Source of the DNA: Acidobacteria bacterium bin61
Lineage (GTDB): Bacteria > Acidobacteriota > Vicinamibacteria > Marinacidobacterales > SMYC01
Assembly (NCBI GenBank): GCA_963578475.1
Contig: CAUZCL010000018.1
Coordinates: 4,579-68,578, forward strand
DNA length: 64,000 nt
Reading direction: 5' to 3'
The position numbers and the translations under genes are program-made. The notes under the pieces are model-generated. The model made no database searches. It saw only the letters and a list, made by a program, of their open reading frames with translations, and was not told where the DNA came from. This document shows positions 39,200 through 62,213 of this stretch, piece by piece (position 1 is the first letter of the stretch; the number at the start of each line of letters is the position of its first letter).

Positions 39200-39275
39200 T
39201 GGTGGAGCTGACGGGGATCGAACCCGTGGCCTCCTGAATGCCATTCAGGCGCGCTCCCAGCTGCGCCACAGCCCC
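39200..39275 (-). tRNA. tRNA-Ala (anticodon GGC)
   Basis: The reverse complement is GGGGCUGUGGCGCAGCUGGGAGCGCGCCUGAAUGGCAUUCAGGAGGCCACGGGUUCGAUCCCCGUCAGCUCCACCA. It folds as a cloverleaf: a 7-bp acceptor stem with the G3:U70 Ala identity pair, a GCGC D-stem, a CCUGA/UCAGG anticodon stem, the loop AUGGCAU giving anticodon GGC, a T-arm ACGGG-UUCGAUC-CCCGU, and an encoded CCA. Confidence 0.9.
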
Positions 39276-39963: not shown

Positions 39964-40060
39964 GTGCAGCGCCCTTCCAGCGTGGAAGACGTTGCTTAGG
40001 TTTTAGTGTCTGTAAGGCCCATGATACTCGCTAGATGCAGCGAGCGCAATTTCCAGCTTT

Positions 40061-40264
40061 CAGTATTCAGAATTCAGGATCATGGACTCCGCATCCAGTT
40101 GCGGGCTCGGGTTTAACTCACGGTGGGCTCCTAATTATTTTCCTCGACTGAGGATACCGGCTTTCGTGGTCGTCCTATGTCCTTAGGCACTCGCATCTGA
40201 GACAGGCCGACTTCTCAACGGACTGCACAGAGCCCTGTCTCAAGGAGCTGAATGCTGAATGCTG
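40061..40264. repeat. A ~200-bp element bounded by inverted heptad-repeat termini. 'cagtattcagaattcagga' (40061-40079) faces 'ctgaatgctgaatgctg' (40248-40264). An internal hairpin lies at 40191-40246.
   Basis: Direct reading of the sequence. The terminal motifs match the (CATTCAG)n family found at 48116, 49501-49634 and 62081. Confidence 0.6.
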
Positions 40265-46747: not shown

Positions 46748-48121
46748 TCAAGACGTCTTGCGATATTTCTTGAGCTTGTTGTGAAGCGTCTTGAGGCTGA
46801 TTCCCAATATCTCGGCGGCGCGCGTCTTGTTCTGCCCCGTAGACTCCAGGGTCTTCAAGATCAAATTCTTCTCCGCTTGCTCAACCGTCGTTCCGACCGG
46901 AAGCTGCTCGACGTTTTTCGACGCCAGGTCGTTTCCGGGCTCGAGGACTGACGGCGGCAAATCCTCTCGCCGGAACAGGTCACCCTTCGCCACGATAACA
47001 GCGCGCTCGACGACGTTGCGAAGCTCGCGGACGTTTCCAGGCCAAAGGTAGGCTTTCAAGGCTAGGGCGGCTTCGTCATCCATGCCTTTGAGCGCCTTTC
47101 CGTTTCGCGTATTGAACTCGTGCACGAAAGCCTCGACGAGCGTCGGAACATCCGCGATCCGGTCGCGAAGCGCTGGGAGCTCCAGCGTGAACACGTTCAC
47201 GCGGTAGTAGAGGTCCTCGCGCAAATCGCCAGCGTCGAGCGCCTCTCGCGGATCACGGTTGGTCGCAGCCAGGATACGCACATCCACGCGAATCTCCTCC
47301 TCGCCGCCCAGACGGCGGAAGCTTCGCTCCTCGAGAACGCGTAGCAGCTTCGCTTGCGTCGAGGGAGCCATCTCGGCCACTTCGTCGAGAAACAGCGTGC
47401 CGCCATGCGCCTGCTCAAACAGGCCGCGGCGCCGCCCCTCTGCTCCGGTAAAAGCCCCTTTTTCGTGTCCAAACATCTCGCTCTCGAGAAGCGTTTCAGG
47501 GATGGCAGCGCAGTTCACCGCGACAAACTGTTTCTCTTTTCTCGCTGAGAGCTCGTGAAGCGTCCTCGCGACCATTTCTTTTCCGGTACCGGACTCGCCA
47601 ACGATGAAGACCGAGGCCGCGGAAGGGGCGACTTGGCTCATGAGCTCATAGAGCTCTTTCATCCGATCGCTCGTCCCAACCATGCTCCCGAACCGGCCGA
47701 TCGTCTCGAGATTCCTCTTGTAGCGCTCGACCTCCTCGCAAGCCGCGTTGCGCTCGACGGCCCTTTCGAGCACCTCGCGAAGCTGCTGCGTGTCGACCGG
47801 TTTGGTCAGGTAGTCGAAGGCACCTATCTTCATCGCCTCGACCGCAGTCCCGATGCTGCCTTTGGCCGTTACCATCACAACGGCGAGACGATCGAGCTCG
47901 GAGACGAGTCCGGAGAGAAGACCTAGGCCGTCCATCCGGGGCATCACGAGATCAGCGATAACGACTTGAGGGCGGAAGCTCTCGGCTCGTGCAAGGCCTT
48001 CGACGCCATCGGCGGCCGTATCGGCCTCGTAGCCCCACCCGCGCACGAGCTCGGAGAGACCCTGTCGGGAGCCCGCTTCGTCGTCGACGATGAGAACGCG
48101 TGTGGTCAGCAATTTCAGCAT
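46748..48121 (-). CDS. Sigma-54-dependent response regulator (NtrC family: REC, AAA+ and Fis HTH domains)
   Basis: A REC domain (VLIVDDE...DLVMP), the sigma-54 interaction domain (GESGTGKE, the GAFTGA loop, ESELFGHEKGAFTGA) and a C-terminal HTH. The start codon lies inside the heptad repeat. Confidence 0.85.
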   Translation of the reverse strand: MLKLLTTRVLIVDDEAGSRQGLSELVRGWGYEADTAADGVEGLARAESFRPQVVIADLVMPRMDGLGLLSGLVSELDRLAVVMVTAKGSIGTAVEAMKIGAFDYLTKPVDTQQLREVLERAVERNAACEEVERYKRNLETIGRFGSMVGTSDRMKELYELMSQVAPSAASVFIVGESGTGKEMVARTLHELSARKEKQFVAVNCAAIPETLLESEMFGHEKGAFTGAEGRRRGLFEQAHGGTLFLDEVAEMAPSTQAKLLRVLEERSFRRLGGEEEIRVDVRILAATNRDPREALDAGDLREDLYYRVNVFTLELPALRDRIADVPTLVEAFVHEFNTRNGKALKGMDDEAALALKAYLWPGNVRELRNVVERAVIVAKGDLFRREDLPPSVLEPGNDLASKNVEQLPVGTTVEQAEKNLILKTLESTGQNKTRAAEILGISLKTLHNKLKKYRKTS

Positions 48122-48140
48122 TCAGCATTCAGCATTCAGG
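48116..48140. repeat. Three tandem heptads (cagcattcagcattcagcattcagg) that overlap the start codon of the sigma-54 activator gene
   Basis: On the coding strand the sequence is cctgaatgctgaatgctgaATGctgaaattg. It has three ATGs at 7-nt spacing, and the third is the annotated start. Confidence 0.7.
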
Positions 48141-48173
48141 CGCGACGACTGCGACGTCGCAGCTTGCTGGACG

Positions 48174-48893
48174 CTACTTCCTCTTCAAACGTATTTTTAG
48201 CAGTAGCTCGATTTCTTGCTCGGCAAGGCTGTCGTCGACTTCGATGGTGACCGGGACCTCGATTCGCTGATTCGCTATGGGCCCGGACACACTCGCAGGA
48301 GGTATGGTCGTAGCTTGATCACGAGGCATCGAGATCTGCGTTTTGATGAGCTCACTCAAGTTCTCGGCCGCGCTCCGTCCCTGCTCCGCATCGAACGTGC
48401 CGCCGAGGAAATCCGCTTCGAGATCGCGTACGACGTGTTCTTCGACGGACGGCTCTTTCAGAACCGTCGCCGCCACCTCGACGCCAGCGCCCTCATCGAG
48501 CAGTCCGGAGAACATCGAGTCCTCGGGCGCCTCCGGTGCGGTCGGTGCAGAATCACTCGGGGCGTCTGCTCTGGACTTGGTGTCTTTGGTTGTCGCATCG
48601 TCCAACCTCAAAGCGTCATCGAGGATACTCTCGATGTTGAGGTTTTCGAACGCGTCTAAATCTGCATGGTCATCGTCGTGTGAGGCCACGTTCTCTTTCT
48701 CCGAAACAGACGGCCAAGTGCTGGCAGCCTTGGCTGAAGCGTCCTGGCTGGACGCGACTTGGCTCACCTGAGCCCTTTCTCCAGTACTCTCCGTGACGCT
48801 GGTGGAGACCAGAGACGCAGGGTCGGTCAGCGCCGAGTTTGTAACTGTTTTTTTCGCGCTTGCCCATGGGCGACATCGCGCGGGCTCCGCCAT
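48174..48893 (-). CDS. Acidic, low-complexity hypothetical protein. It overlaps the 3' end of the mglA frame.
   Basis: A 239-aa ORF rich in Asp/Glu/Ser/Ala/Thr and predicted to be disordered, with a C-terminal amphipathic segment. Its start lies beside a T7/A7 homopolymer. The frame relationship with mglA is unresolved. Confidence 0.3.
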   Translation of the reverse strand: MAEPARCRPWASAKKTVTNSALTDPASLVSTSVTESTGERAQVSQVASSQDASAKAASTWPSVSEKENVASHDDDHADLDAFENLNIESILDDALRLDDATTKDTKSRADAPSDSAPTAPEAPEDSMFSGLLDEGAGVEVAATVLKEPSVEEHVVRDLEADFLGGTFDAEQGRSAAENLSELIKTQISMPRDQATTIPPASVSGPIANQRIEVPVTIEVDDSLAEQEIELLLKIRLKRK

Positions 48894-49545
48894 AGCGGTC
48901 GATGACCGACTTCAACACGAGGCCGCTGATCGCTTGGAGCGTCTCCTCAACGCCGATACCGTCTTTGGCGACAGCCTCGTAAAACGGCGCGTTCATCGTA
49001 TTGAGCGCGTCGTTCATCTCCTCCACCGTGCAAACGTCCTCGAGATCACGCTTGTTGAACTGCATGACCATCGGCAGCGCCTCGAGCTTCAGGTCGTGAG
49101 CCGCCAGATTCTCCCGCAGGTTGTCGAGACTCTCCCGATTGGCCTCGGGCATGCTCGGTTGCGAATCCGCGACGAAGACCACCCCATCCGCACCTTTGAG
49201 GACCATCCTCCGAGTCGCGTTGTAGAAAACCTGACCCGGCACCGTATAAAGCTGGACCCGAGTCTTGATCCCGCGGACAATCCCAGCATCAACAGGAAGA
49301 AAATCAAAATAAAGAGTACGATCCGTATCCGTCGCCAGCGTCAACATCCGCCCTGTGTTCTTAATCGGAAGATCTTCGTAGATGTACTGCAGATTGCTCG
49401 TCTTACCAGACAAACCAGGCCCGTAATAGACAATTTTAGCGGTCAACTCCTTCAGAGCGCAATTAAAAAGGACCACTGGTTTACCTTCCGGCCAGATTGC
49501 ACTGAATCTTATAGTGTACCAGCATTCAGGATCAGTGGTCAGCAT
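48670..49545 (-). CDS. mglA: MglA-like Ras-superfamily small GTPase, the mutual-gliding / cell-polarity GTPase family
   Basis: KIVYYGPGLSGKTSNLQYIY (P-loop), DRTLYFDFLP, LYTVPGQVFY, FVADSQ and QFNKRDL are collinear with Myxococcus MglA. Two extra parts are of uncertain reality: the N-terminal 30 aa, which starts in a heptad repeat, and ~70 aa after the conserved end. Confidence 0.65.
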   Translation of the reverse strand: MLTTDPECWYTIRFSAIWPEGKPVVLFNCALKELTAKIVYYGPGLSGKTSNLQYIYEDLPIKNTGRMLTLATDTDRTLYFDFLPVDAGIVRGIKTRVQLYTVPGQVFYNATRRMVLKGADGVVFVADSQPSMPEANRESLDNLRENLAAHDLKLEALPMVMQFNKRDLEDVCTVEEMNDALNTMNAPFYEAVAKDGIGVEETLQAISGLVLKSVIDRYGGARAMSPMGKREKNSYKLGADRPCVSGLHQRHGEYWRKGSGEPSRVQPGRFSQGCQHLAVCFGERERGLTRR

Positions 49546-49634
49546 TCAGCATTCAGGAACTCTCAAGACTGCCACTCTGAGATGGTCGGCAACAGTCCTG
49601 AGAGCATCCTGAATGCTGGATGCTGAATGCTGAT
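49501..49634. repeat. A composite palindromic element. Heptad-repeat arms (49521-49557) face their reverse complement (49608-49634) around a nested inner palindrome.
   Basis: agcattcagg...cagcattcagcattcagg / cctgaatgctggatgctgaatgctg. The inner pair is ctctcaagactg / cagtcctgagag. It lies between the mglA start and the helicase gene. Confidence 0.65.
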
Positions 49635-49657
49635 CTGAGATAAACTCCCAGCACACG

Positions 49658-52030
49658 ATGTCGCAGATTCTGGCGCCGGCGGACCGAGGCCATGCTCTTC
49701 AGAACGTCATTGACGAGCTGAAAGGAGGGGCACAGCAGCTGCCGACGGTTACGGCCCTGAGGCATTTTCCCGCGGTCCCAGCCCATTTTGCTGATTTTCC
49801 GGACGAGCTCCGGCCGGAGATCGTCGAAGCACTCAGGCGGCGCGGCATCGAACGGCTGTATTCCCATCAGAGGGAAGCTTTCGAGAAAGCCTCCGAAGGC
49901 AATAACATCGTTATCGTCACGCCAACCGCATCGGGAAAGACTCTTTGCTACAACCTTCCCATACTGAATCGCGTCCTCGAAGAGCCCGAGACGCGCGCGC
50001 TCTATCTCTTCCCAACCAAGGCACTCTCGCAAGATCAGCTCGCGGAGGTGCATGGGCTCATCCAGGACATCGGGGCCGACATCCGCACGTTCACCTATGA
50101 CGGCGATACGCCCCAGGATGCGCGCAAAGCGATCCGCTCACGCGGGCACCTGGTCGTGACCAACCCCGATATGCTGCATAGCGGCATCCTGCCTCACCAC
50201 CCAAAATGGGTGAAGCTTTTCGAGAACCTGCGCTATATCGTCATCGACGAGATTCATGCCTATCGCGGTGTCTTCGGCTCGCACCTGGCGAATATTCTGA
50301 GGCGTCTCCGGCGCATCTGCCGCTTCTATGGATCGGACCCGCAATTCATTTGCTCCTCGGCGACGATCGCGAACCCCAAGGAGCTCACCGAAGAGCTCAT
50401 CGGGAGCCCGGTGCAGCTCATCGACCGAAGCGGGGCGCCGAGAGGCGAGAAATATTTTGTGTTCTACAACCCGCCGGTCGTGAACCAAGAGCTCGGCATA
50501 CGCCGCTCCTATGTCAACGAGACGCGCCGTATCGCGGCGTCGTTTCTCAAGCGCGGGCTCCAGACGATCGTGTTCACGACGAGCCGGCTGAACACAGAGA
50601 TTCTCGTCACCTATCTCAAAAAGGAGATCGAGCAAGACGTGACCCGTCGCGATCTCATTCGCGGCTATCGCGGCGGCTATCTTCCGAAAAAGCGCCGCGC
50701 GATCGAAACTGGGCTTCGAGAAGGTAGCGTGCTCGGCGTCGTCTCGACTAACGCGCTAGAGCTCGGGATCGATATCGGCGCGCTCGACGTCGCCGTGATC
50801 TCAGGCTACCCCGGAACCATCGCCTCGACATGGCAGCAAGCGGGACGGGCGGGACGGCGTACCGGCACCTCCGTCGCCGTCTTTGTCGCGAGTAGCAGCC
50901 CGCTCAATCAATTCGTAGTCAATCATCCGGATTACTTCTTTTCGGGCTCGCCCGAACATGGCCTCATCAATCCGAACAACCTCTCGGTGCTCGTCGATCA
51001 CATAAAGTGCGCCGCTTTCGAGCTGCCGTTTCAGGACGGCGAGAGCTTCGGCGCCGAAAACCTCTCCGAAATTCTCTCTTTTCTCGAAGAGCACAACGTG
51101 GTTCACCATTCGAGAGAACGTTGGCATTGGACGAACGATTCCTATCCGGCCAACAATGTCAGCCTGCGCTCGATAAGCTCCGACAACTTCACCGTCTATG
51201 ACGAGACCCGCGAGCCCAAGATCATTGCTGAAGTGGATTTCGTCAGCGCCCATTCGACGCTCCATCCGAAAGCCATCTATATCCTCGAAGGCCAGCAGTT
51301 TTATGTCGAGAGCTTCGACTATGACGAGAGGCGCGCAACCGTGAGGCAATGGGAGACGGACTACTTCACCAACGCTATCACCCATACAAAGGTCAATATC
51401 CTCGAGAAGTTCGATAGCTCGACTGTTCTCGAAGGTGAGAGAAATCACGGCGAGGTTCACGTGGTCTCGCAAGTAGTGGGCTTCAAGAAGATCAAGTTCT
51501 ATACCCTCGAGAATGTAGGCTCGGGCGAGCTCGACATGCCAGAGCTCGAGATGCACACGACATCTTATTGGCTGACGGTGCCGAGAGAGGTCATGGACTC
51601 GCTTCCGGCTAGCTCGGAAGAGCGCCGAGACGGCGTTATCGGGCTAGCCAATACGCTCAAGACGGTAGCGATGCTCTTCCTCATGTGCGATCGCTCAGAC
51701 ATCGGCGTGGCTCTTGGCGACAACTCGCAGGGGACCGCCAAAGTGGAACGCGGTTTCAAGCGGCTCGGACCCGGCGGACTCCCCGCTTCCGAGCCGATGG
51801 ACCCGTCCTACGAGCCCAACATCTTTCTCTACGACAGCTATCCGGGCGGTATCGGCTTTTCGCAACCGCTATACGAGCTGCACACGCGCCTCGTTTCCGA
51901 GGCCAAAACACTCATCGAAAGCTGTCCTTGTCACCAAGGCTGCCCGTCCTGCGTCGGTCCCGTGGGCGAGGTCGGACTGCGGGGAAAGGTAATCGCACTG
52001 GCGATTCTGGAGCGGCTGGCCGCTTCATGA
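49658..52030 (+). CDS. mrfA: DEAD/DEAH-box helicase with a C-terminal DUF1998 zinc-ribbon domain (MrfA/YprA-like)
   Basis: Helicase motifs I (TPTASGKT), II (DEIH), III (SAT) and VI (QQAGRAGR), and a C-terminal CPCHQGCPSCV four-Cys motif typical of DUF1998. 790 aa. Confidence 0.75.
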   Translation: MSQILAPADRGHALQNVIDELKGGAQQLPTVTALRHFPAVPAHFADFPDELRPEIVEALRRRGIERLYSHQREAFEKASEGNNIVIVTPTASGKTLCYNLPILNRVLEEPETRALYLFPTKALSQDQLAEVHGLIQDIGADIRTFTYDGDTPQDARKAIRSRGHLVVTNPDMLHSGILPHHPKWVKLFENLRYIVIDEIHAYRGVFGSHLANILRRLRRICRFYGSDPQFICSSATIANPKELTEELIGSPVQLIDRSGAPRGEKYFVFYNPPVVNQELGIRRSYVNETRRIAASFLKRGLQTIVFTTSRLNTEILVTYLKKEIEQDVTRRDLIRGYRGGYLPKKRRAIETGLREGSVLGVVSTNALELGIDIGALDVAVISGYPGTIASTWQQAGRAGRRTGTSVAVFVASSSPLNQFVVNHPDYFFSGSPEHGLINPNNLSVLVDHIKCAAFELPFQDGESFGAENLSEILSFLEEHNVVHHSRERWHWTNDSYPANNVSLRSISSDNFTVYDETREPKIIAEVDFVSAHSTLHPKAIYILEGQQFYVESFDYDERRATVRQWETDYFTNAITHTKVNILEKFDSSTVLEGERNHGEVHVVSQVVGFKKIKFYTLENVGSGELDMPELEMHTTSYWLTVPREVMDSLPASSEERRDGVIGLANTLKTVAMLFLMCDRSDIGVALGDNSQGTAKVERGFKRLGPGGLPASEPMDPSYEPNIFLYDSYPGGIGFSQPLYELHTRLVSEAKTLIESCPCHQGCPSCVGPVGEVGLRGKVIALAILERLAAS

Positions 52031-53400
52031 ACACGCGCACGACTCGGGAAAAGCTCGACAAACTCTTTCCTTCGCCCCGCAAACGCAACAATGACTCGCT
52101 CTACAGCCTCGAGAAAGAGGTTCTCGGATCCGAGGCGAGCTCCGAGGGCGAGTTCTCCGTCAAAGAGCGGCTCGAACGTCTCCTCGCCGTCACAAAGGCC
52201 CGTCCCCGCACGTTCCCGTCGCCGGCAATAGCGAGGCCGCCAGCGCTCGAGCTCGGCGAAGTTCTCGACGGCGAGGAAGTCTCGAACGACTTCGGCAGCT
52301 TCTACAGCGTCGACAAGATCTACCCGCTCGCACATTTTCAGGGTCGGATCCAGCTCGCTCGGCTCACGAGCGTTCCGAGAGAAGCGTTCTCGATGCTGTC
52401 ACGCGGCGACGACGTTTTCGAAATTGACTTGAAGGAGGCACTGTTTCTCGACACCGAGACGACCGGGCTCGCGGGCGGCGCCGGCACGTGTGCTTTTCTC
52501 ATCGGCTTGGGGTGGGTCGAGAACGAGAGCTTCGTGCTGCGGCAGCTCTTCATGCGCGACTATGGCGAAGAAGCCGCCATGCTCCATGCGCTCGGTGAGA
52601 TCCTCGCGCGCTTCGAGCTGCTCGTAAGCTACAACGGCAAATCGTTCGACATCCCCCTGCTCGAGACCCGCTTCGTCCTCACGCGACAACGCCTGTCCTT
52701 CGAGCATCTATTGCATTTCGACTTGCTGCACTCGGCACGCAGCCTGTGGAAGGTCCGCATCGAGAGCTGTCGCTTGATGGAACTCGAGCATCGTCTACTC
52801 GGGCTCGAACGCGAAGACGACATACCGGGTCACATGATCCCCGACTTGTTTTTTCGCTTCCTGCGAACAGGAGACGCGATTCGCCTCGACCACGTCTTCC
52901 ATCACAACCGACACGACATCCTTTCGCTCGCCGCTCTCACGATATGCGCCTCGGACTTGCTCGACGAAAGCCATGTTCCAGAGGATCCTCTCGACGATCT
53001 CAGCCTCGGTCGCTTGTTCGAACGCTCCGCGCAGCCCGAACGCTCCATGATGCATTACAGCCGCGCCGTCGAGGCCGGGCTGTCGGGCGCCGCGCGCCGT
53101 CGGGCCCTCGCAGCACTCGCGGACCAGCACAAACGCCGCGGCGATATTGATGACGCGCGCAAGCTATGGGGTGAGCTCGCCGACGGCGAGTCCGTAGAGG
53201 TCGTCCAAGCACTTCACGAGCTCGCGATGCTGAGCGAGCATCGCGAGCGGGACTTCACACAAGCACTCGGCTTGTGCGAGCGCGCGCTTTCCTACCTGGA
53301 CGAGAATTACGAGCTGACGCTCTCGTTTCGCTTCAAGTGGCGTGACGCCTTCGCCCATCGCCGCTCGCGTTTGAAAAAACGCCTTGCCAAGAGCAGATAA
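52027..53400 (+). CDS. mrfB: DnaQ-like (RNase H-fold) 3'-5' exonuclease with a C-terminal helical/TPR-like region (MrfB/YprB-like)
   Basis: The start codon overlaps the helicase stop (ATGA). FLDTETTGL (exo I motif), a downstream YNGKSFDIPLL and HNRHD (exo III-like), and a C-terminal TPR-like helical domain. Confidence 0.65.
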   Translation: MNTRTTREKLDKLFPSPRKRNNDSLYSLEKEVLGSEASSEGEFSVKERLERLLAVTKARPRTFPSPAIARPPALELGEVLDGEEVSNDFGSFYSVDKIYPLAHFQGRIQLARLTSVPREAFSMLSRGDDVFEIDLKEALFLDTETTGLAGGAGTCAFLIGLGWVENESFVLRQLFMRDYGEEAAMLHALGEILARFELLVSYNGKSFDIPLLETRFVLTRQRLSFEHLLHFDLLHSARSLWKVRIESCRLMELEHRLLGLEREDDIPGHMIPDLFFRFLRTGDAIRLDHVFHHNRHDILSLAALTICASDLLDESHVPEDPLDDLSLGRLFERSAQPERSMMHYSRAVEAGLSGAARRRALAALADQHKRRGDIDDARKLWGELADGESVEVVQALHELAMLSEHRERDFTQALGLCERALSYLDENYELTLSFRFKWRDAFAHRRSRLKKRLAKSR

Positions 53401-53410
53401 GCCAGACCGA

Positions 53411-53854
53411 TCACCGCCTCGTGATCGATCGCAGTCGCTCTTCGATCTCGGCGCCTTCTTTCTTGCTGCTGCAGATGATCAAGATGGTGTCGTCCCCGGC
53501 GATGGTTCCCATGACTTGCGGCCACGCGACTTCGTCGAGGCCATGCGCAACGCCTTGCGCGTTTCCCGGAGGGGTCTTGACGACGATCAAGTTATTCGCC
53601 CGCTCGATGGTGCGCACGAAAGCGACAAGGGGGGAGAGGGGGCCATCTCCCAAGGGACCGGCGGTGTAAGAATAGCCGCCGCGCCCGTCCGGTCCTTTTG
53701 CGATACCGAGCGCTTTCAGCTCACGCGAGAGCGTCGACTGCGTCATGGAAATACCGGCTTCGGCCAGCGCTCCGATGAGCTCGCTTTGATTGCGGAGGGC
53801 TCGCGCGCGAACGAGAGACAGGATGATCTCTTGCCGCGTGGTGCGATCCGACAT
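53411..53854 (-). CDS. argR: Arginine repressor
   Basis: An N-terminal winged-helix (RQEIILSLVRARALRNQSELIGALAEAGISMTQSTLSRELKALG) and a C-terminal oligomerisation/arginine-binding domain. 147 aa. Confidence 0.8.
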   Translation of the reverse strand: MSDRTTRQEIILSLVRARALRNQSELIGALAEAGISMTQSTLSRELKALGIAKGPDGRGGYSYTAGPLGDGPLSPLVAFVRTIERANNLIVVKTPPGNAQGVAHGLDEVAWPQVMGTIAGDDTILIICSSKKEGAEIEERLRSITRR

Positions 53855-54099
53855 CAGCCGCCGCTGACAGGAGGAAGAAAAGCAACTTCGTCGTCTGGCT
53901 GGAGCTCCGTTTCTTTGCCGACGAAATCGTGGTTCACCGCGAATTGAAGGGCAGCGCCGTAAGGCTCGAGGCGAGGTTCGTCGCTCACGAGACGCTCCCA
54001 GAGCCCCGTTACCGTCGTACCCGATGGCAGCTCGACTTCCAGTTCTTCCTTGTCCATGACCTCGCGCAAGGCAGCAAAGACGCGTACTCGTACGTTCAA
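53854..54099 (-). CDS. moaD: MoaD/ThiS-family sulfur carrier protein
   Basis: A beta-grasp ~80 aa ending in the diglycine VSGG*. The stop overlaps the argR start. A TTG start is assumed. Confidence 0.6.
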   Translation of the reverse strand: MNVRVRVFAALREVMDKEELEVELPSGTTVTGLWERLVSDEPRLEPYGAALQFAVNHDFVGKETELQPDDEVAFLPPVSGG

Positions 54100-54524
54100 C
54101 GTATTTCCGCCGTTTCCACCGGGCCTTCGACCCAAACTTCGCCGTCATCGAAGACTTCTTTTTTCCAAATTGGAACGATGCGCTTGAGCCGATTGATTGC
54201 GTATTGGCATGCGGCGAAGCTATCGTCGCGATGGGGCGACGAGACTACGATGACCACGCTCGTCTCACCAACATTCAGCCGCCCAACACGATGCTGAATG
54301 TGGAGGCTCTCGAGACCCCAATTCGCCTTGACCTCTTCCCCGATGCGCTCCATCATTTTGACAGCCATCTCCGGATAGGCTTCATATTCGAGGAAGAGAA
54401 CTTTCTTTCCTTTATTGGTGCCTCGCACAATCCCCGAGAACGTCGCGATCGCGCCGTCGCGATCGCTGGCGACGCCTCGTGCAAGCGTTCGCAAATCCAG
54501 AATATCGTGCACGATTTCAAACAT
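54096..54524 (-). CDS. moaE: Molybdopterin synthase catalytic subunit
   Basis: MFEIVHDILDL...VVIVVSSPHRDDSFAACQYAINRLKRIVPIWKKE is a MoaE family member. The start is chosen at the MFEIV Met. Confidence 0.8.
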   Translation of the reverse strand: MFEIVHDILDLRTLARGVASDRDGAIATFSGIVRGTNKGKKVLFLEYEAYPEMAVKMMERIGEEVKANWGLESLHIQHRVGRLNVGETSVVIVVSSPHRDDSFAACQYAINRLKRIVPIWKKEVFDDGEVWVEGPVETAEIR

Positions 54525-54628
54525 AGCCAGTGAAATAGTAGCCTGTCCCGAAGCCCCGAACAAGTTCCTATACGCCTGCCCCAACGGCTTTACCGATCTT
54601 GGGAAGTTGGAAAGGAAGAGAAAAAAGA

Positions 54629-54735
54629 AAGGGGAGGTGGGGATAGGGGGATAAAAAAAGATTAAGAGAATCTTTGTTCTTATCCCCACATCTCCACCCA
54701 TCCCCACCTCCCCTTGCTTTTGCTTTTCCAGCAAC
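54629..54735 (-). terminator. A large GC-rich hairpin followed by a U-tract on both strands. Probably the intrinsic terminator of thiD.
   Basis: On the plus strand, aaggggaggtggggat...atccccacctcccctt forms a 16-bp perfect stem with an inner ggggataa/ttatcccc stem. It is followed by gcttttgcttttcc on the plus strand and tcttttttctcttcc on the minus strand. Confidence 0.5.
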
Positions 54736-54767
54736 TTGCTTTTGTTCTTCCAAGCAGCCCGGCTAGT

Positions 54768-55592
54768 CTAGTCGCTCTCCGGCCACACTTTTTGGCCGAT
54801 GAAGTGGTCGACGGGCCCGTGTCCTCGTCCGATTGAAACCCCTAACTCGAGGGCTCTTGTTAGATAGGCCTTGGCGATCTCGACGGCTTTCTCGAGGGCT
54901 ACTCCCAGGGCAAGCTGAGCCGTGATGGCCGCGGAAAAGGTGCACCCCGTGCCATGTGTGTTTCGGACGGAGAGACGCGGCGCCGTGAAGCTCATGAACC
55001 GGCGCCCGTCATACAACCAATCCACGGAGGCATCTCCCGTCGCGTGTCCGCCCTTGACGACAACCGCCCGCGCTCCCATTTCTACGATCCGCCGAGCGGC
55101 GGCATGGATCGAGCTCTCGTCCTCCATAGGAAAACCCACGAGCGCCTCGGCCTCGGGGAGGTTTGGGGTCACGAGAAGGGCGCGGGGGAGGAGCTGGTCG
55201 CGGAGGGACTTGACGGCTTCCGGCTGCAGCAGTCGATCCCCGCTTTTCGACACCATCACCGGATCCACGACGATTTTATCGACACGGTGCTCTCCCAGTT
55301 TCCGGGCTACCACCTCGATGACCGGCGACGTGGACAACATGCCCGTCTTCACCGCATCGATGGCGATATCATCGTATACAGTGTCGATTTGAAAACCGAT
55401 CGCCTCCGGAGTCAGTTGAGAGACGCCGGCGACCGTCTGCGTATTCTGCGCGGTGACCGCAGTGATGGCACTCGTCCCGTAGACGCCGTGGGCGGCGAAA
55501 GTCTTGAGGTCCGCTTGAATTCCAGCGCCACCTCCCGAATCGGAGCCGGCAATCGTCATTGCCACCGTCGGGCGGCCTTGCTCTTTTGCCAT
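54768..55592 (-). CDS. thiD: Hydroxymethylpyrimidine / phosphomethylpyrimidine kinase
   Basis: MTIAGSDSGGGAGIQADLKTF...GTGCTFSAAITAQL is ThiD/PdxK ribokinase-like. The start is set at MAKEQGRP. Confidence 0.85.
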   Translation of the reverse strand: MAKEQGRPTVAMTIAGSDSGGGAGIQADLKTFAAHGVYGTSAITAVTAQNTQTVAGVSQLTPEAIGFQIDTVYDDIAIDAVKTGMLSTSPVIEVVARKLGEHRVDKIVVDPVMVSKSGDRLLQPEAVKSLRDQLLPRALLVTPNLPEAEALVGFPMEDESSIHAAARRIVEMGARAVVVKGGHATGDASVDWLYDGRRFMSFTAPRLSVRNTHGTGCTFSAAITAQLALGVALEKAVEIAKAYLTRALELGVSIGRGHGPVDHFIGQKVWPESD

Positions 55593-55702
55593 GAAGAACT
55601 TATAGCATGCCAACCTTGACGGCAGCGATCTGTTCTCGTATTCTGTTGGCAGAAAGGGGCTTGCCCCTCGCGGGAGCCTGAAAACCTCTAGGACCATGGC
55701 CC

Positions 55703-57640
55703 ATGTCGAAGTCGAGCCTTCGCTCCTTTCCGGGTGATCGACCGGAATCACGCTCGGACTTTCGGGCGGCGTTCGACCGATCGCCGGTGGCAACGTTTCT
55801 GTTCGACGATGCGACGCGCGCGTGTCTCGAGGCAAACAAAGCCGCCGAGCTTCTCACCGCGTTCAGCCGCGCGGAGCTTCTCGATCGCCGTATAGAAGAC
55901 CTCCACACTCGCGAGCACCGGGATCGTACGCTCAAATACTTCCAGAGGTTTCGTCACGAGCCCGGATTCACCTACGATGATTTGAAGCTCGAGACGAAAG
56001 ACGGACGCGTCGTCGCTGTCGAAGTCCGGGGCATGAACCTCGGGTTCGACGAGCGCAAGATCATTCTTGTCTACGTCCGCGACATCACCGAAGAGCGACT
56101 CTTGCAGCGTGAGGTCTTGTTTCAAAACCACAAGCTCACGACGCTCAACGCGCTCTCCTCGGCGATCCGAAACTCGATGGAGCTCCACCAAATTCTTTCG
56201 GGATCGTTGCGCGTGATCATGGAGGCGAGTGGAAGCGTTTAAGGAGAGGTTCTGATTTATGACGAAGACAGCGAGACGTTCCAAATCGCCACGGTTCGGG
56301 GAGAAGGAGCCTCTGAGCCGCCTCGAGGACCCCCGAACGCCGCGGATTGCGAACTTGCGAACCGCGTTCTCGCGAAGGGCAAGCCGATCCTCCTCGACTC
56401 GCTGGCGCACGAGCCACGGCTATCCGAGCTTCTGAGAGGATAATCGGGCACCGGGGCGGCCGCGGGGGTCCCGCTTCGCAACAAAGACCGCGTCATGGGC
56501 GTCATGCAGCTCGCGATCGCGACGGACCAACTATTCCTAACGTTCGATTTCGAGCTGTTCACCTCGATTGGTGTCCAGATCGGGATGGCAGCTGACAACG
56601 CCGTGCTCTTTCAGAGGACGGTACGCCAAGCGAAGCAAATCCAGCTCCTGAACAATATCGCTCGCATCATCAGCAGCAGTCTTCAAATCGAGGAAGTCTT
56701 CGACTCGTTCACCAACGAGATGGAAAAACTCTTCGACTTCGACCGTCTTTTGGTGGCGTTTCTCGAAAGCTCGGGGAGCTACCTTCGGATTTTCGCTTCG
56801 GGCGCGCGCACGGATTCGGGGTGGGGCATGGAGTCGCTGATCCCCCTCGTCGGGACCGGTCCAGGGTGGACGGTCTTGAACGAGACGCATTTCATCCATC
56901 CGGACACGAAGGAAGAGCAGAAGTTCATCGAAGACCAATTTCTGTACGAAGACGGGATTCGTTCCTACATCCTGCTGCCCATCCACTCACGCGGTAAGAT
57001 CGTCGGCACTTTTGGACTCGGCTCACGCAAGCGCAACGGTTTTTCGGAGAAAGATCTCCCTCTGCTCACGCAGCTCTCGAAGCAAATCTCCGTCGCGATC
57101 GAGAACGTCAAGCTCTACCAACAGACGAAGGAGACATCGATCCTCGACGATGTGAGCTCTCTCTTCAATTTTCGCTATTTCCATCAACCCCTCGACCGTG
57201 AGCTCAAGCTCGTCGCGCGACACAAGTCTCATTTGAGCCTGATCTTCATGGACCTCGACAAATTCAAGCAAATCAACGACGTACACGGACATCTTCGGGG
57301 GAGCAAAGTGCTGCGTGAGGTGGGGTTCTGTTTGCGCGCCGCGATCCGCGAGACCGATATCGCTGCCCGCTACGGCGGTGACGAGTTCGTCGTGATCCTG
57401 CCCGACACGGACTACGCGGCGGCCAAACGGCTCGGCGAACGTATGCGCCAGCTCGTTGTGCGAACGACGTACCTCAAAGAGGAAGGCATCAACGCCCGTA
57501 TCGGGGCAAGCATCGGCGTGGCCACCTTCCCGACCGAGGCACCGTCCAAGGACGAGCTCATCGCCTTGGCCGATGAGCGCATGTACCGAGACAAGGAAGA
57601 GAATTACCGACGAGCAGCATCGTCGCCCAAAGATTTCTGA
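55703..57640 (+). pseudogene. PAS-GAF-GAF-GGDEF diguanylate cyclase with two or more frameshifts at about 56240 and about 56440
   Basis: A PAS domain (55703..56242), then GAF segments in two further frames (GEVLIYDEDSETFQIATVRGE... and AAAGVPLRNKDRVMGVMQLA), then an in-frame GAF and GGDEF (56495..57640) with RYGGDEFVV. Confidence 0.6.
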
Positions 57641-61017: not shown

Positions 61018-62094
61018 TCAGGCAGCCTGGTGACTCTTCGCGAGCGCTCTGAGCGATTCGTCATACGGAGCTTCCGCCACACCGTTCTCGCAAACGATCG
61101 CGGTGACGAGCCGTGACGGCGTCACGTCGAAAGCGGGATTCCGGATGCGCACGCCTTCGGGTGCTATGCGGACCCCTTGGATGTGGGTCACCTCGTCCGG
61201 CGATCGCTCTTCGATGGGGATCTCTTTGCCCGAGGCGATAGAAAGATCGAAGGTCGATGTCGGCGCTACCGCGTAGAAGGGAAGCCCGTGCTCTTTAGCC
61301 AAGACCGCGACGGAGTAGGTGCCAATCTTGTTGCATACGTCGCCATTCGAAGCGATCCGATCGGAGCCTGTGATCACCATGTCGATCTCGCCGAGCGCCA
61401 TGAAGTGGCCTGCCATGTTGTCAGTGATGAGCGTGACGGGAATGTTGTCCTGGACGAGCTCCCAGGCGGTGAGGCGCGCGCCTTGGAGAAACGGGCGGGT
61501 CTCGTTGGCGAAGACTTCGATCTTCTTCCCTGCCTCGACCGCGGCACGCATCACGCCGAGAGCGGTCCCATATCCGGCCGTGGCGAGGGCACCCGCATTG
61601 CAGTGGGTGAGGATACGCGTGCCATCCGGCACGAGCGCGGCCCCGTGCTCGCCCATTCGCCGGTTGATCTCGATATCCTCTGTCTGAATGGCCATCGCTT
61701 CCCGCTCCATCCCGGCGAGCACCGCTTCGACGCCGCTACTAACGAGCTCTTCGAAACGCTTTGTCATCCGATCGATGGCCCAGAACAAATTGACGGCGGT
61801 CGGTCGCGTGCCCGCCATCAAGGTCGATAGCGATTCCATCGATTGACGAAGACTCTCGGCGTCCTTTTTGCCGGACTGTTTCAGGCCGAGTGCGATCCCG
61901 AAGGCCGCGGTCACACCAATCGCCGGCGCGCCACGGACAACCATGTCTGTGATAGCCGCGGCCACGGCCTCGGCGTTGCGGCAGGAGAGATAGTCCTCCT
62001 TGAGCGGTAGATATCTCTGGTCGATGAGGGCGACGGCATCGCCGTCCCAGCGAATAGTTTCGAGCACAAATCCTCCCTGATCAGCATTCAGCAT
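61018..62094 (-). CDS. mtnA: S-methyl-5-thioribose-1-phosphate isomerase
   Basis: A full-length eIF2B-related MtnA ([12 protein letters not shown]..., ...[21 protein letters not shown]). The start codon is the first ATG of the heptad repeat cctgaATGctgaATGctg. Confidence 0.8.
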
Positions 62095-62099
62095 TCAGG
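62081..62099. repeat. Two tandem heptads (cagcattcagcattcagg) that overlap the mtnA start codon
   Basis: Direct reading of the sequence. It belongs to the same family as the repeats at 48116, 49521 and 40061. Confidence 0.7.
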
Positions 62100-62213
62100 A
62101 ATCCCAGTCTAACGGTCATCGCGTAGGAACTGCAACGGCGTGGTAGATTTTGTTCGGTCTTCGACGTGTTGCGACTCATTATTCTTTCTTTCATCAGTGC
62201 GGGGCTGTAGGCG

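Follow-up and report, generated by a model that had tools for sequence, protein, structure and literature searches.

A chromosomal gene pair of an acidobacterium as a probable counterpart of the Bacillus subtilis MrfA/MrfB helicase-exonuclease repair module

A chromosomal mrfA-mrfB operon was found in the window, the whole stretch of 64,000 nucleotides of acidobacterial DNA that was analyzed. We put at about 85% the probability that it encodes the excision-repair module of two genes, one for a helicase and one for an exonuclease, that was originally described in Bacillus subtilis. Both gene products are orthologous to MrfA and MrfB, their catalytic and zinc-binding residues are intact, and the two genes form an operon in a housekeeping, vertically inherited context. 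The gene pair is an ordinary MrfA/MrfB counterpart, and its importance beyond correct annotation is small.

The upstream gene, mrfA (yprA-type; 49658 to 52030, plus strand), encodes an SF2 DExH DNA helicase of 790 aa, and its start codon is backed by the N-terminus M(S/T/A)(Q/E)ILAP, which is conserved among relatives. The domains are arranged in the order NTR, RecA1, RecA2, winged helix, OB, CON, and MZB, and helicase motifs I (TPTASGKT, residues 88 to 95), II (DEIH, 197 to 200), III (SAT, 234 to 236), and VI (QQAGRAGR, 393 to 400) were identified. The Pfam families DEAD (124.6 bits), Helicase_C (52.9 bits), WHD_HRQ1 (PF22982; 44.4 bits), and MZB all scored above their gathering cut-offs. Residues 663 to 766 matched MZB (PF09369, formerly DUF1998) with 64.9 bits (cut-off, 24.2), and the zinc site CPCHQGCPSC at residues 756 to 765 (codons at 51923 to 51952, plus strand; C756, C758, C762, and C765) aligned with CPCHDGCPSC of B. 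subtilis MrfA. The first-pass annotation, made from the DNA letters and an open reading frame list, had the helicase end in a four-Cys DUF1998 zinc ribbon, and this was confirmed. Zinc binding by the four MZB cysteines is known from PMC7797055. Beyond position 451, the helicase contains only C677 in addition to the canonical four cysteines and has no extra Cys clusters. In a search of PDB sequences, it matched 6znp (B. subtilis YprA/MrfA) with an E value of 2.5e-250 and 835.7 bits; residues 41 to 685 and 720 to 787 aligned colinearly with chain positions 31 to 673 and 684 to 750, all the way from the NTR to the C-terminus, and 52% of the 708 aligned residues were identical. The first of these blocks contained no indel longer than 3 residues, and the winged helix, OB, and CON domains are fused to the core without interruption. 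The only name found in the sequence cluster of either protein was the generic "DEAD/DEAH box helicase domain-containing protein", attached to a 229-aa fragment.

The downstream gene, mrfB (yprB-type; 52027 to 53400, plus strand), encodes a protein of 457 aa, a predicted DEDDh 3'-5' exonuclease that ends in a TPR domain. The choice of the ATG at 52027 as the start codon is supported by the alignment of the N-terminus MNTRTTREKLDKLF with those of homologues. A longer version given in the open reading frame list (GTG at 51685, 571 aa) was rejected, because the additional stretch is another frame inside mrfA and the homologues begin at the ATG. The Exo I motif FLDTETTGL lies at residues 140 to 148 (52444 to 52470, plus strand), as had been noticed at the first reading, and it includes D142, E144, and the wedge residue L148, which aligned with the Leu wedge L113 of the B. 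subtilis MrfB core structure (8un9). The protein matched RNase_H_2 (PF13482) with 136.8 bits and the sequence of 8un9 with an E value of 8.4e-35. D142, E144, D208, H293, and D297 aligned with D107, E109, D172, H258, and D262 of B. subtilis MrfB, which are experimentally tested residues (numbering from PMC11194089), and all five were invariant in an alignment of 16 homologues. The TPR-like tail that had been proposed for this protein was likewise recovered at residues 321 to 456 (52987 to 53394, plus strand): TPR_5 matched residues 334 to 407 with 26.5 bits (cut-off, 24.2), and in an AlphaFold2 model (pLDDT 83.6) the tail is all-helical, its helices mostly having a pLDDT above 90. When the model was used for a Foldseek search, 8un9_A ranked first (E = 4e-9; target-normalized TM-score, 0.72; identity, 25%), followed by exonuclease domains of B-family polymerases and by TPR proteins, designed ones included. 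The paper on the MrfB structure also reports a resemblance to B-family polymerase exonuclease domains. The first-pass annotation had named two outcomes that would speak against an MrfA/MrfB-type architecture, namely DEDD residues missing on alignment and a helicase C-terminus that failed to match DUF1998 profiles; neither was observed, and the matches to 6znp and 8un9 bear the proposed architecture out.

The mrfB start codon and the TGA stop codon of mrfA share the sequence ATGA (52027 to 52030, plus strand), which makes translational coupling within one operon probable. The same overlap was seen in the related loci L084 and L085. In 23 loci, which belong to Acidobacteriota, Atribacterota, Bacillota, Halanaerobiales, Chloroflexota, and delta-proteobacterial MAGs, mrfA was located on the strand of mrfB and directly 5' of it. 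A third conserved gene of the module was ruled out by all-against-all clustering of the flanking ORFs of 81 loci, in which the pair loci shared only mrfA and antisense shadow ORFs. These results agree with the two-gene unit suggested earlier. Downstream, argR (53411 to 53854), moaD (53854 to 54099), and moaE (54096 to 54701) lie on the minus strand, in accordance with the first reading; these names are those given for an identical contig (offset, 42026) in its Pfam-labelled gene table. The gene order histidine kinase (HK), sigma54 regulator, GTPase, mrfA, mrfB, (argR), moaD, and moaE was kept in relatives whose MrfB proteins are 87% and 55% identical to the present one, on contigs of 2.9 to 10.4 Mb. 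The GC content of mrfA-mrfB resembles that of the surroundings, and relatives of MrfB occurred in none of 50,697 phage records and in 2 of 72,556 plasmid records. These observations mark the MrfAB repair module as a stable part of the core genome in Vicinamibacteria-like soil Acidobacteriota, whose habitat also harbours producers of mitomycin-type antibiotics.

DUF1998/MZB helicases are also central to the published anti-phage systems DISARM, Dpd, and Druantia. The pair could accordingly be all or part of a YprA/DUF1998-helicase defence system (DISARM-like, Dpd, Druantia, or ARMADA-like), with the helicase sensing or tracking foreign DNA for degradation by the exonuclease. PADLOC profiles did match the helicase, with 168 bits for BrxHI, 152 for SngC, 126 for DruE, and 72 for DrmA. 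However, none of these matches extended beyond the RecA core (roughly residues 45 to 420), whereas the MrfA match spanned the full length of the protein. The DrmA match (71.9 bits) covered only residues 194 to 419, no full-length match to DruE, DpdF/DpdJ, or BrxHI, whose profiles are 610 to 2055 positions long, was obtained, and the NCBIfam family for DISARM DrmA (NF038326 DISARM_DrmAL) gave 28.5 bits, far below its cut-off of 999. The sole PADLOC match of MrfB was a weak, generic DEDDh one (20.7 bits). Moreover, the helicase carries the OB-CON-MZB module as a fused part, with no inserted zinc-binding modules, and has the MZB domain as its own C-terminus, in contrast to the separate DUF1998 protein DrmB.

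The neighbourhood also speaks against a defence function. According to the Pfam-labelled gene tables, neither a PLD nuclease gene nor a DNA methyltransferase gene is located within about 10 kb of the pair or within 8 kb of it in close relatives, where such neighbours had been proposed as a sign of a DISARM-like system. Neither type was present among 20 proteins flanking the pair loci of other phyla, and no accessory genes of Druantia, Dpd, or BREX are found near the pair in the gene table. The only methyltransferase seen was a small Methyltransf_11 protein in locus L015, in which mrfA and mrfB are separated by 4.2 kb. A defence function is further opposed by the failure of any third gene to be conserved, by the stable core-chromosome gene order, by the native composition, and by the near absence of MrfB relatives from phage and plasmid records. 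In the published tree of YprA proteins, the MrfB-associated helicases fall in a repair branch, apart from DISARM, Dpd, and Druantia. Sequence and context therefore indicate the repair branch, there is no sign of a phage-defence system, and we regard a defence function as highly improbable. The first-pass annotation had stated that nothing here tells repair and defence apart; that statement does not hold, given the full-length MrfA match, the restriction of the defence profiles to the RecA core, the lack of methyltransferase and PLD genes, and the conserved gene order. Repair and defence helicases of the DUF1998/YprA type can be separated by sequence and context alone, and the present pair is a worked example. 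The repair branch can be recognized by an OB-CON-MZB module that is fused and uninterrupted, by a partner of the DEDDh-TPR type, by a housekeeping neighbourhood of conserved order that lacks PLD and methyltransferase genes, and by absence from mobile elements.

If the pair acts as its B. subtilis counterpart does, MrfA would load on single-stranded DNA and move 3' to 5', and its OB-CON-MZB "canopy" would close over the loading strand. MrfB, with its TPR tail, would act as a DEDDh DNA exonuclease of 3'-5' polarity that depends on Mg or Mn; for both enzymes the polarity is assigned from B. subtilis. The overlapping genes would allow MrfA and MrfB to be produced in a fixed proportion, and by analogy with the cooperation in B. 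subtilis, the two proteins most likely form a complex. MrfA would then unwind the adduct-bearing strand and MrfB would degrade that strand, so that guanine mono-adducts or intrastrand crosslinks of the mitomycin C type, the lesion class expected from B. subtilis, would be removed independently of UvrABC. Among MrfA proteins, 3'-5' ATP-dependent helicase activity and mitomycin C sensitivity upon deletion are known only for that of B. subtilis.

It is conceivable that the MrfA and MrfB activities are kept but serve another substrate or process here, such as adducts of other soil natural products, DNA-protein crosslinks, or the processing of stalled forks, in which case the label "mitomycin repair" would be wrong. 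Burby & Simmons reported that the B. subtilis mutants were complemented only by homologues of close relatives; those of P. aeruginosa and S. pneumoniae failed, and the authors proposed that such distant homologues may have adapted to different uses. However, this failure may stem from species-specific protein contacts and not from a different lesion. Further points in favour of another substrate are a segment of 34 residues in the MZB domain (686 to 719), which comprises 10 residues in B. subtilis, and the genes for an AP_endonuc_2-type TIM barrel protein and RadC, which flank the pair in Atribacterota. In addition, MrfB-like genes without an adjoining mrfA are found in many Bryobacterales, which implies that the mrfA-mrfB partnership is not obligatory across Acidobacteriota. 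On the other hand, the catalytic, zinc-binding, and wedge residues are all conserved, as is the complete domain order, and no sequence feature indicates a different substrate. A change of substrate is thus considered unlikely, and repair of the B. subtilis type is preferred. Still less probable is a retuned acidobacterial MrfAB, adapted either to different DNA adducts of soil natural products or in its expression, by way of a recently inserted palindrome in the promoter or 5' region of mrfA and the GTPase gene.

That palindrome is located at 49519 to 49635, in the intergenic region from which mrfA and the MglA-like GTPase gene (minus strand) diverge. Copies of the heptamer CAGCATT, arranged in inverted arrays, surround its 48-nt center. 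The long arms (49530 to 49558 and 49607 to 49635) are 29 nt in length and 86% complementary, and its short arms (49519 to 49532 and 49606 to 49619) are 14 nt in length and 100% complementary. An ATG at 49545 was discarded as the start codon of the GTPase gene in favour of a GTG at about 49476, based on an alignment with L084. The position of the palindrome, whose 3' end is only 22 nt from the mrfA ATG, and the very stable predicted RNA fold of 49500 to 49660 (−72.1 kcal/mol; z = −6.7) would suit control of both mrfAB and the divergent GTPase gene by an operator array or a 5'-UTR hairpin, and L084 and L085 carry it at the same site with the same center. However, the palindrome is absent from L004, L005, and L086, which have the same mrfAB gene order; there, unrelated sequence joins the flanking blocks GGACTGGATC..ATAGT and TATAAACTC. 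Heptamer arrays of the CAGCATT type also occur at unrelated intergenic sites of the window (40054 to 40264, 48110 to 48141, and 62080 to 62100), where the enclosed sequence differs. From its absence in those three loci and the arrays at other sites, the palindrome behaves as a dispersed REP-like or MITE-like repeat. Of the 87 scattered stretches obtained in a metagenome scan for an exact 19-mer of the palindrome arm, 17 had an inverted partner no more than 400 bp away. Several of the 87 were on low-GC contigs and are probably unrelated microsatellites, and the set does not define a family. The comparison of loci indicates that the palindrome is a lineage-specific insertion of a dispersed repeat and no conserved part of the mrfAB module, and a regulatory function for it seems improbable. 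The palindromic element flanking the pair that had been noted at first is real, but it is missing from more distant mrfAB loci.

Other regulatory signals were also sought. A scan of 49350 to 53600 yielded no sigma-70-like promoter and two terminator-like sites, both of them within coding sequence and fewer than expected by chance. The motif GTTCN7GTTC, the LexA-type box of Acidobacterium capsulatum, which may not suit the present lineage, had no site with one mismatch or fewer between 46893 and 55760, and its total in the window was below chance. Damage-inducible regulation is thus unsupported, as no recognizable sigma-70 promoter, intrinsic terminator, or LexA-type box is found near the pair. 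An Rfam scan of the whole window detected only a tRNA at 39203 to 39275 and gave no match at the palindrome.

Among the known systems, DISARM (DrmA/DrmB, with DrmC and DrmMI/MII) resembles the present pair in combining an SF2 core with a DUF1998/MZB zinc domain. In DISARM, however, OB-CON-DUF1998 is the separate protein DrmB and is accompanied by a PLD nuclease and DNA methyltransferases, whereas here the module is fused and the partner is a DEDDh exonuclease, with no PLD or methyltransferase gene nearby. SftH of Mycobacterium smegmatis, a monomeric 3'-5' DNA helicase, belongs to the same YprA family; the corresponding NCBIfam family TIGR03817 (DECH_helic) matched residues 32 to 683 of the present helicase with 667 bits, below the family cut-off of 874, and the actinobacterial proteins are of a "YprA-only" type, without an MrfB partner. 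B. subtilis MrfA (YprA; PDB 6znp, 6znq, and 6zns) shares the domain order, motifs I, II, III, and VI, the zinc site CPCHxGCPSC, and the gene position directly 5' of mrfB. It differs in coming from another phylum, in its length of 749 aa (PMC7797055), and in lacking about 10 N-terminal residues of the present helicase, in which, moreover, the longer MZB segment is free of Cys. The acidobacterial MrfB proteins have in common a conserved N-terminal segment, LExEVLG ... KERLERL (residues 25 to 53). B. subtilis MrfB (YprB; 8un9) is only 25% identical to the present MrfB in the structural alignment. Nevertheless, it is the best match in both sequence and predicted fold, with the same DEDDh core of five catalytic residues, the Leu wedge, the C-terminal TPR domain, and a long N-terminal insertion ahead of beta-1.

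Two overlapping genes on the forward strand, mrfA (49658-52030, 790 aa) and mrfB (52027-53400, 457 aa counted from the ATG at 52027), were present exactly as described in the first-pass annotation, and the ATG of mrfB overlapped the TGA of the helicase gene (ATGA). This overlap of stop and start codons implies that MrfA and MrfB would be co-translated. The start of mrfA was backed by the N-terminus M(S/T/A)(Q/E)ILAP, which is conserved in three relatives, and the N-terminus beginning at the mrfB ATG was common to sixteen homologues. A start of mrfB at GTG 51685, given in a mechanical ORF list, was rejected because the extra upstream part falls within the helicase coding sequence, in a different frame. 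The two motifs claimed previously were located at residues 756-765 of the helicase (the four-Cys motif CPCHQGCPSC) and residues 140-148 of its partner (FLDTETTGL). The stop of mrfB (53400) and that of the convergent argR (53411) are 10 bp apart; no intrinsic-terminator-like hairpin was found between them (53400-53411), and the transcripts from opposite strands may overlap there.

The helicase scored above the gathering thresholds of four Pfam families, DEAD, Helicase_C, the HRQ1-type winged helix, and MZB (PF09369, previously named DUF1998), the last of which confirmed the assignment of its C-terminus. The best match by far among all PDB sequences was B. subtilis YprA/MrfA (6znp; E 2.5e-250, 835.7 bits), with which the helicase aligned colinearly over residue 41 through the C-terminus (52% identity, 708 aligned positions). 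The runners-up, Lhr, Hel308, and Brr2, scored 87 bits or less and matched only the RecA core.

The partner protein matched RNase_H_2 (136.8 bits) and TPR_5 in Pfam, and its sole match in the PDB was the exonuclease core of B. subtilis MrfB (8un9, E 8.4e-35). The MrfB residues tested in B. subtilis are D107, E109, D172, H258, D262, and the wedge L113 (PMC11194089). The alignment placed D142, E144, D208, H293, D297, and L148 of the window protein at these positions, so that all DEDD catalytic residues were accounted for, and the six residues were invariant among 16 homologues with identity down to 44%. An AlphaFold2 model (pLDDT 83.6) retrieved 8un9 first in a structural search, followed by B-family polymerase exonuclease domains and TPR proteins. 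The former resemblance is shared with B. subtilis MrfB, for which it was also given by the MrfB authors (PMC11194089). Relatives carried Vicinamibacteria source names and the JGI label 'YprB with RNaseH-like and TPR domain'. The main reading as a MrfA/MrfB-type pair is supported by sequence, fold, and catalytic-residue matches.

The first-pass annotation held that repair and anti-phage roles could not be told apart for this pair; profiles, domain layout, and context favour repair. In 2025, a survey of about 52,000 YprA-like proteins distinguished a repair branch, YprA-only or MrfB-associated, from a defence branch, in which the canopy (the OB-CON-MZB part) is split (DISARM) or broken by extra Zn-binding modules and the helicases are accompanied by PLD or other nucleases (bioRxiv 10.1101/2025.09.15.676423). 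In contrast to the split canopy of DISARM, that of the window helicase is fused; unlike those of the defence branch, it is uninterrupted and without extra Cys clusters, and the partner is a DEDDh-TPR protein. Profiles for DISARM, Dpd, Druantia, BREX-helicase, and Cas3 reached the RecA core only; the NCBIfam DrmA score was 28.5 bits (cut-off 999), and that of PADLOC DrmA was 72 bits over residues 194-419. In the Pfam-labelled gene table, genes for methyltransferases, PLD nucleases, and mobile elements were all absent within about 10 kb of the pair. Its neighbours were a two-component system, a sigma54 activator, an MglA-like GTPase, argR, moaDE, thiD, a GGDEF protein, Smr, and TsaD; argR, moaD, moaE, and thiD lie downstream of mrfB on the minus strand, their names being taken from the Pfam-labelled genes of an identical metagenome contig. 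The GC content of the pair (0.57-0.60) matched that of the window (0.60), and MrfB relatives were found in none of 50,697 phage records and in 2 of 72,556 plasmid records. These results point to repair rather than defence.

The gene order of the window was kept in relatives with 87% and 55% MrfB identity (contigs of 2.9-10.4 Mb). Of 81 distinct genome loci with a mrfB relative, 23 had a mrfA gene directly upstream of it on the same strand, and these 23 span Acidobacteriota, Atribacterota, Bacillota, Halanaerobiales, Chloroflexota, and delta-proteobacterial MAGs. When all flank ORFs were clustered, no third gene proved common to these 23 loci, and twenty flanking proteins from ten of them were varied housekeeping gene products.

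The other 58 loci had a MrfB-like gene without mrfA within about 8 kb (L008, L012-L014, L016-L018, L021-L038, and others, from Bryobacterales / Solibacteraceae MAGs). Their proteins were approximately 40% identical to the window protein, usually from about residue 45-80 onward, and the neighbours were housekeeping genes whose sequences, judged by reading alone, resembled GalE, alanine dehydrogenase, enoyl-CoA hydratase, and a membrane glycosyltransferase-like protein. Therefore, the exonuclease in Bryobacterales may act by itself or be paired with a helicase whose gene lies elsewhere. In two Atribacterota-like MAGs (L010, 4670-9863; L011, 2298-6579), a RadC/JAB gene directly follows mrfAB, and in L010 an AP_endonuc_2 (xylose-isomerase-like TIM barrel) gene precedes it; these genes may form a small lineage-specific DNA-repair cluster. 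At a locus of a Terriglobia MAG (L015, 1210-9281), mrfA and mrfB are 4.2 kb apart, with two intervening genes that encode a BNR/Sortilin-repeat protein of 1107 aa and a small protein of the Methyltransf_11 type; insertion can thus disrupt the adjacency.

The palindrome reported upstream of the pair (49519-49635) proved real, and an inverted-repeat search identified its arms at 49530-49558/49607-49635 and 49519-49532/49606-49619. It consists of inverted arrays of the heptamer CAGCATT, and the region 49500-49660 folded as RNA at -72.1 kcal/mol (z = -6.7). Further arrays were found as a pair enclosing an unrelated 166 bp (40054-40079/40246-40264) and singly at 48110-48141 and 62080-62100, and all the array sites lie at gene boundaries. 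A 19-mer of the arrays had 9 matches in the window against 0 expected by chance; it occurred exactly in 87 metagenome stretches, 17 of which had an inverted partner no more than 400 bp away. Judged from sequence, the (CAGCATT)n arrays look like a dispersed REP-like or MITE-like family. Their CAT triplets create spurious minus-strand ATG starts, e.g., at 48121 and 62094. The palindrome recurs in L084 and L085, the closest relatives, where its site and centre are unchanged. L004, L005, and L086 lack it despite identical gene order; unrelated sequence connects the conserved flanking blocks GGACTGGATC..ATAGT and TATAAACTC in L004. On this distribution, the palindrome is a young, lineage-specific dispersed repeat inserted in the divergent intergenic region and not a conserved component of mrfAB. 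A conserved block, (T/G)ATAAACTC, at 49638-49646 ends 12 nt before the mrfA ATG; we infer that it could be a -10 element, which would leave the mRNA almost without a leader.

The MglA/Ras-like GTPase gene divergent from mrfA (48174-49476, minus strand) was split into two overlapping frames, 48670-49545 and 48174-48893, which were 90% and 69% identical to residues 1-220 and 203-425, respectively, of the L084 counterpart, a single 425-aa ORF whose GTPase domain precedes an acidic C-terminal tail. The comparison indicates a frameshift near 48860-48900, real or due to assembly error. The GTPase gene probably starts at a GTG near 49476, which was favoured over the ATG at 49545 within the palindrome. 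A tRNA gene (39203-39275, minus strand; RF00005, 63 bits) was the sole match in the window to reach its Rfam gathering score.

By orthology, MrfA would be a 3'-5' ssDNA-loading helicase translocating by the 'canopy and skipping-rope' mode of B. subtilis MrfA (PMC7797055), and MrfB would be a Mg/Mn-dependent 3'-5' DNA exonuclease, as is the B. subtilis enzyme (PMC11194089). In B. subtilis, mrfA and mrfB are epistatic, UvrABC-independent, and specific for mitomycin C, and the lesions removed are probably mono-adducts or intrastrand crosslinks, not interstrand crosslinks (Burby & Simmons). By analogy, the lesion class would be the same in bin61. The B. subtilis mutants were complemented only by homologues from close relatives, and distant homologues may serve other uses (Burby & Simmons). 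A scan of 49350-53600 found no promoter or terminator that would point to damage-inducible control. The LexA-type box GTTCN7GTTC, known from Acidobacterium capsulatum and possibly not used in this lineage, was absent near the pair (46893-55760, up to 1 mismatch).

The sole notable difference from B. subtilis MrfA was a Cys-free segment of 34 residues (686-719) in the window helicase, where the B. subtilis protein has 10 residues. The pair is a textbook MrfAB in an uncultured Acidobacterium.
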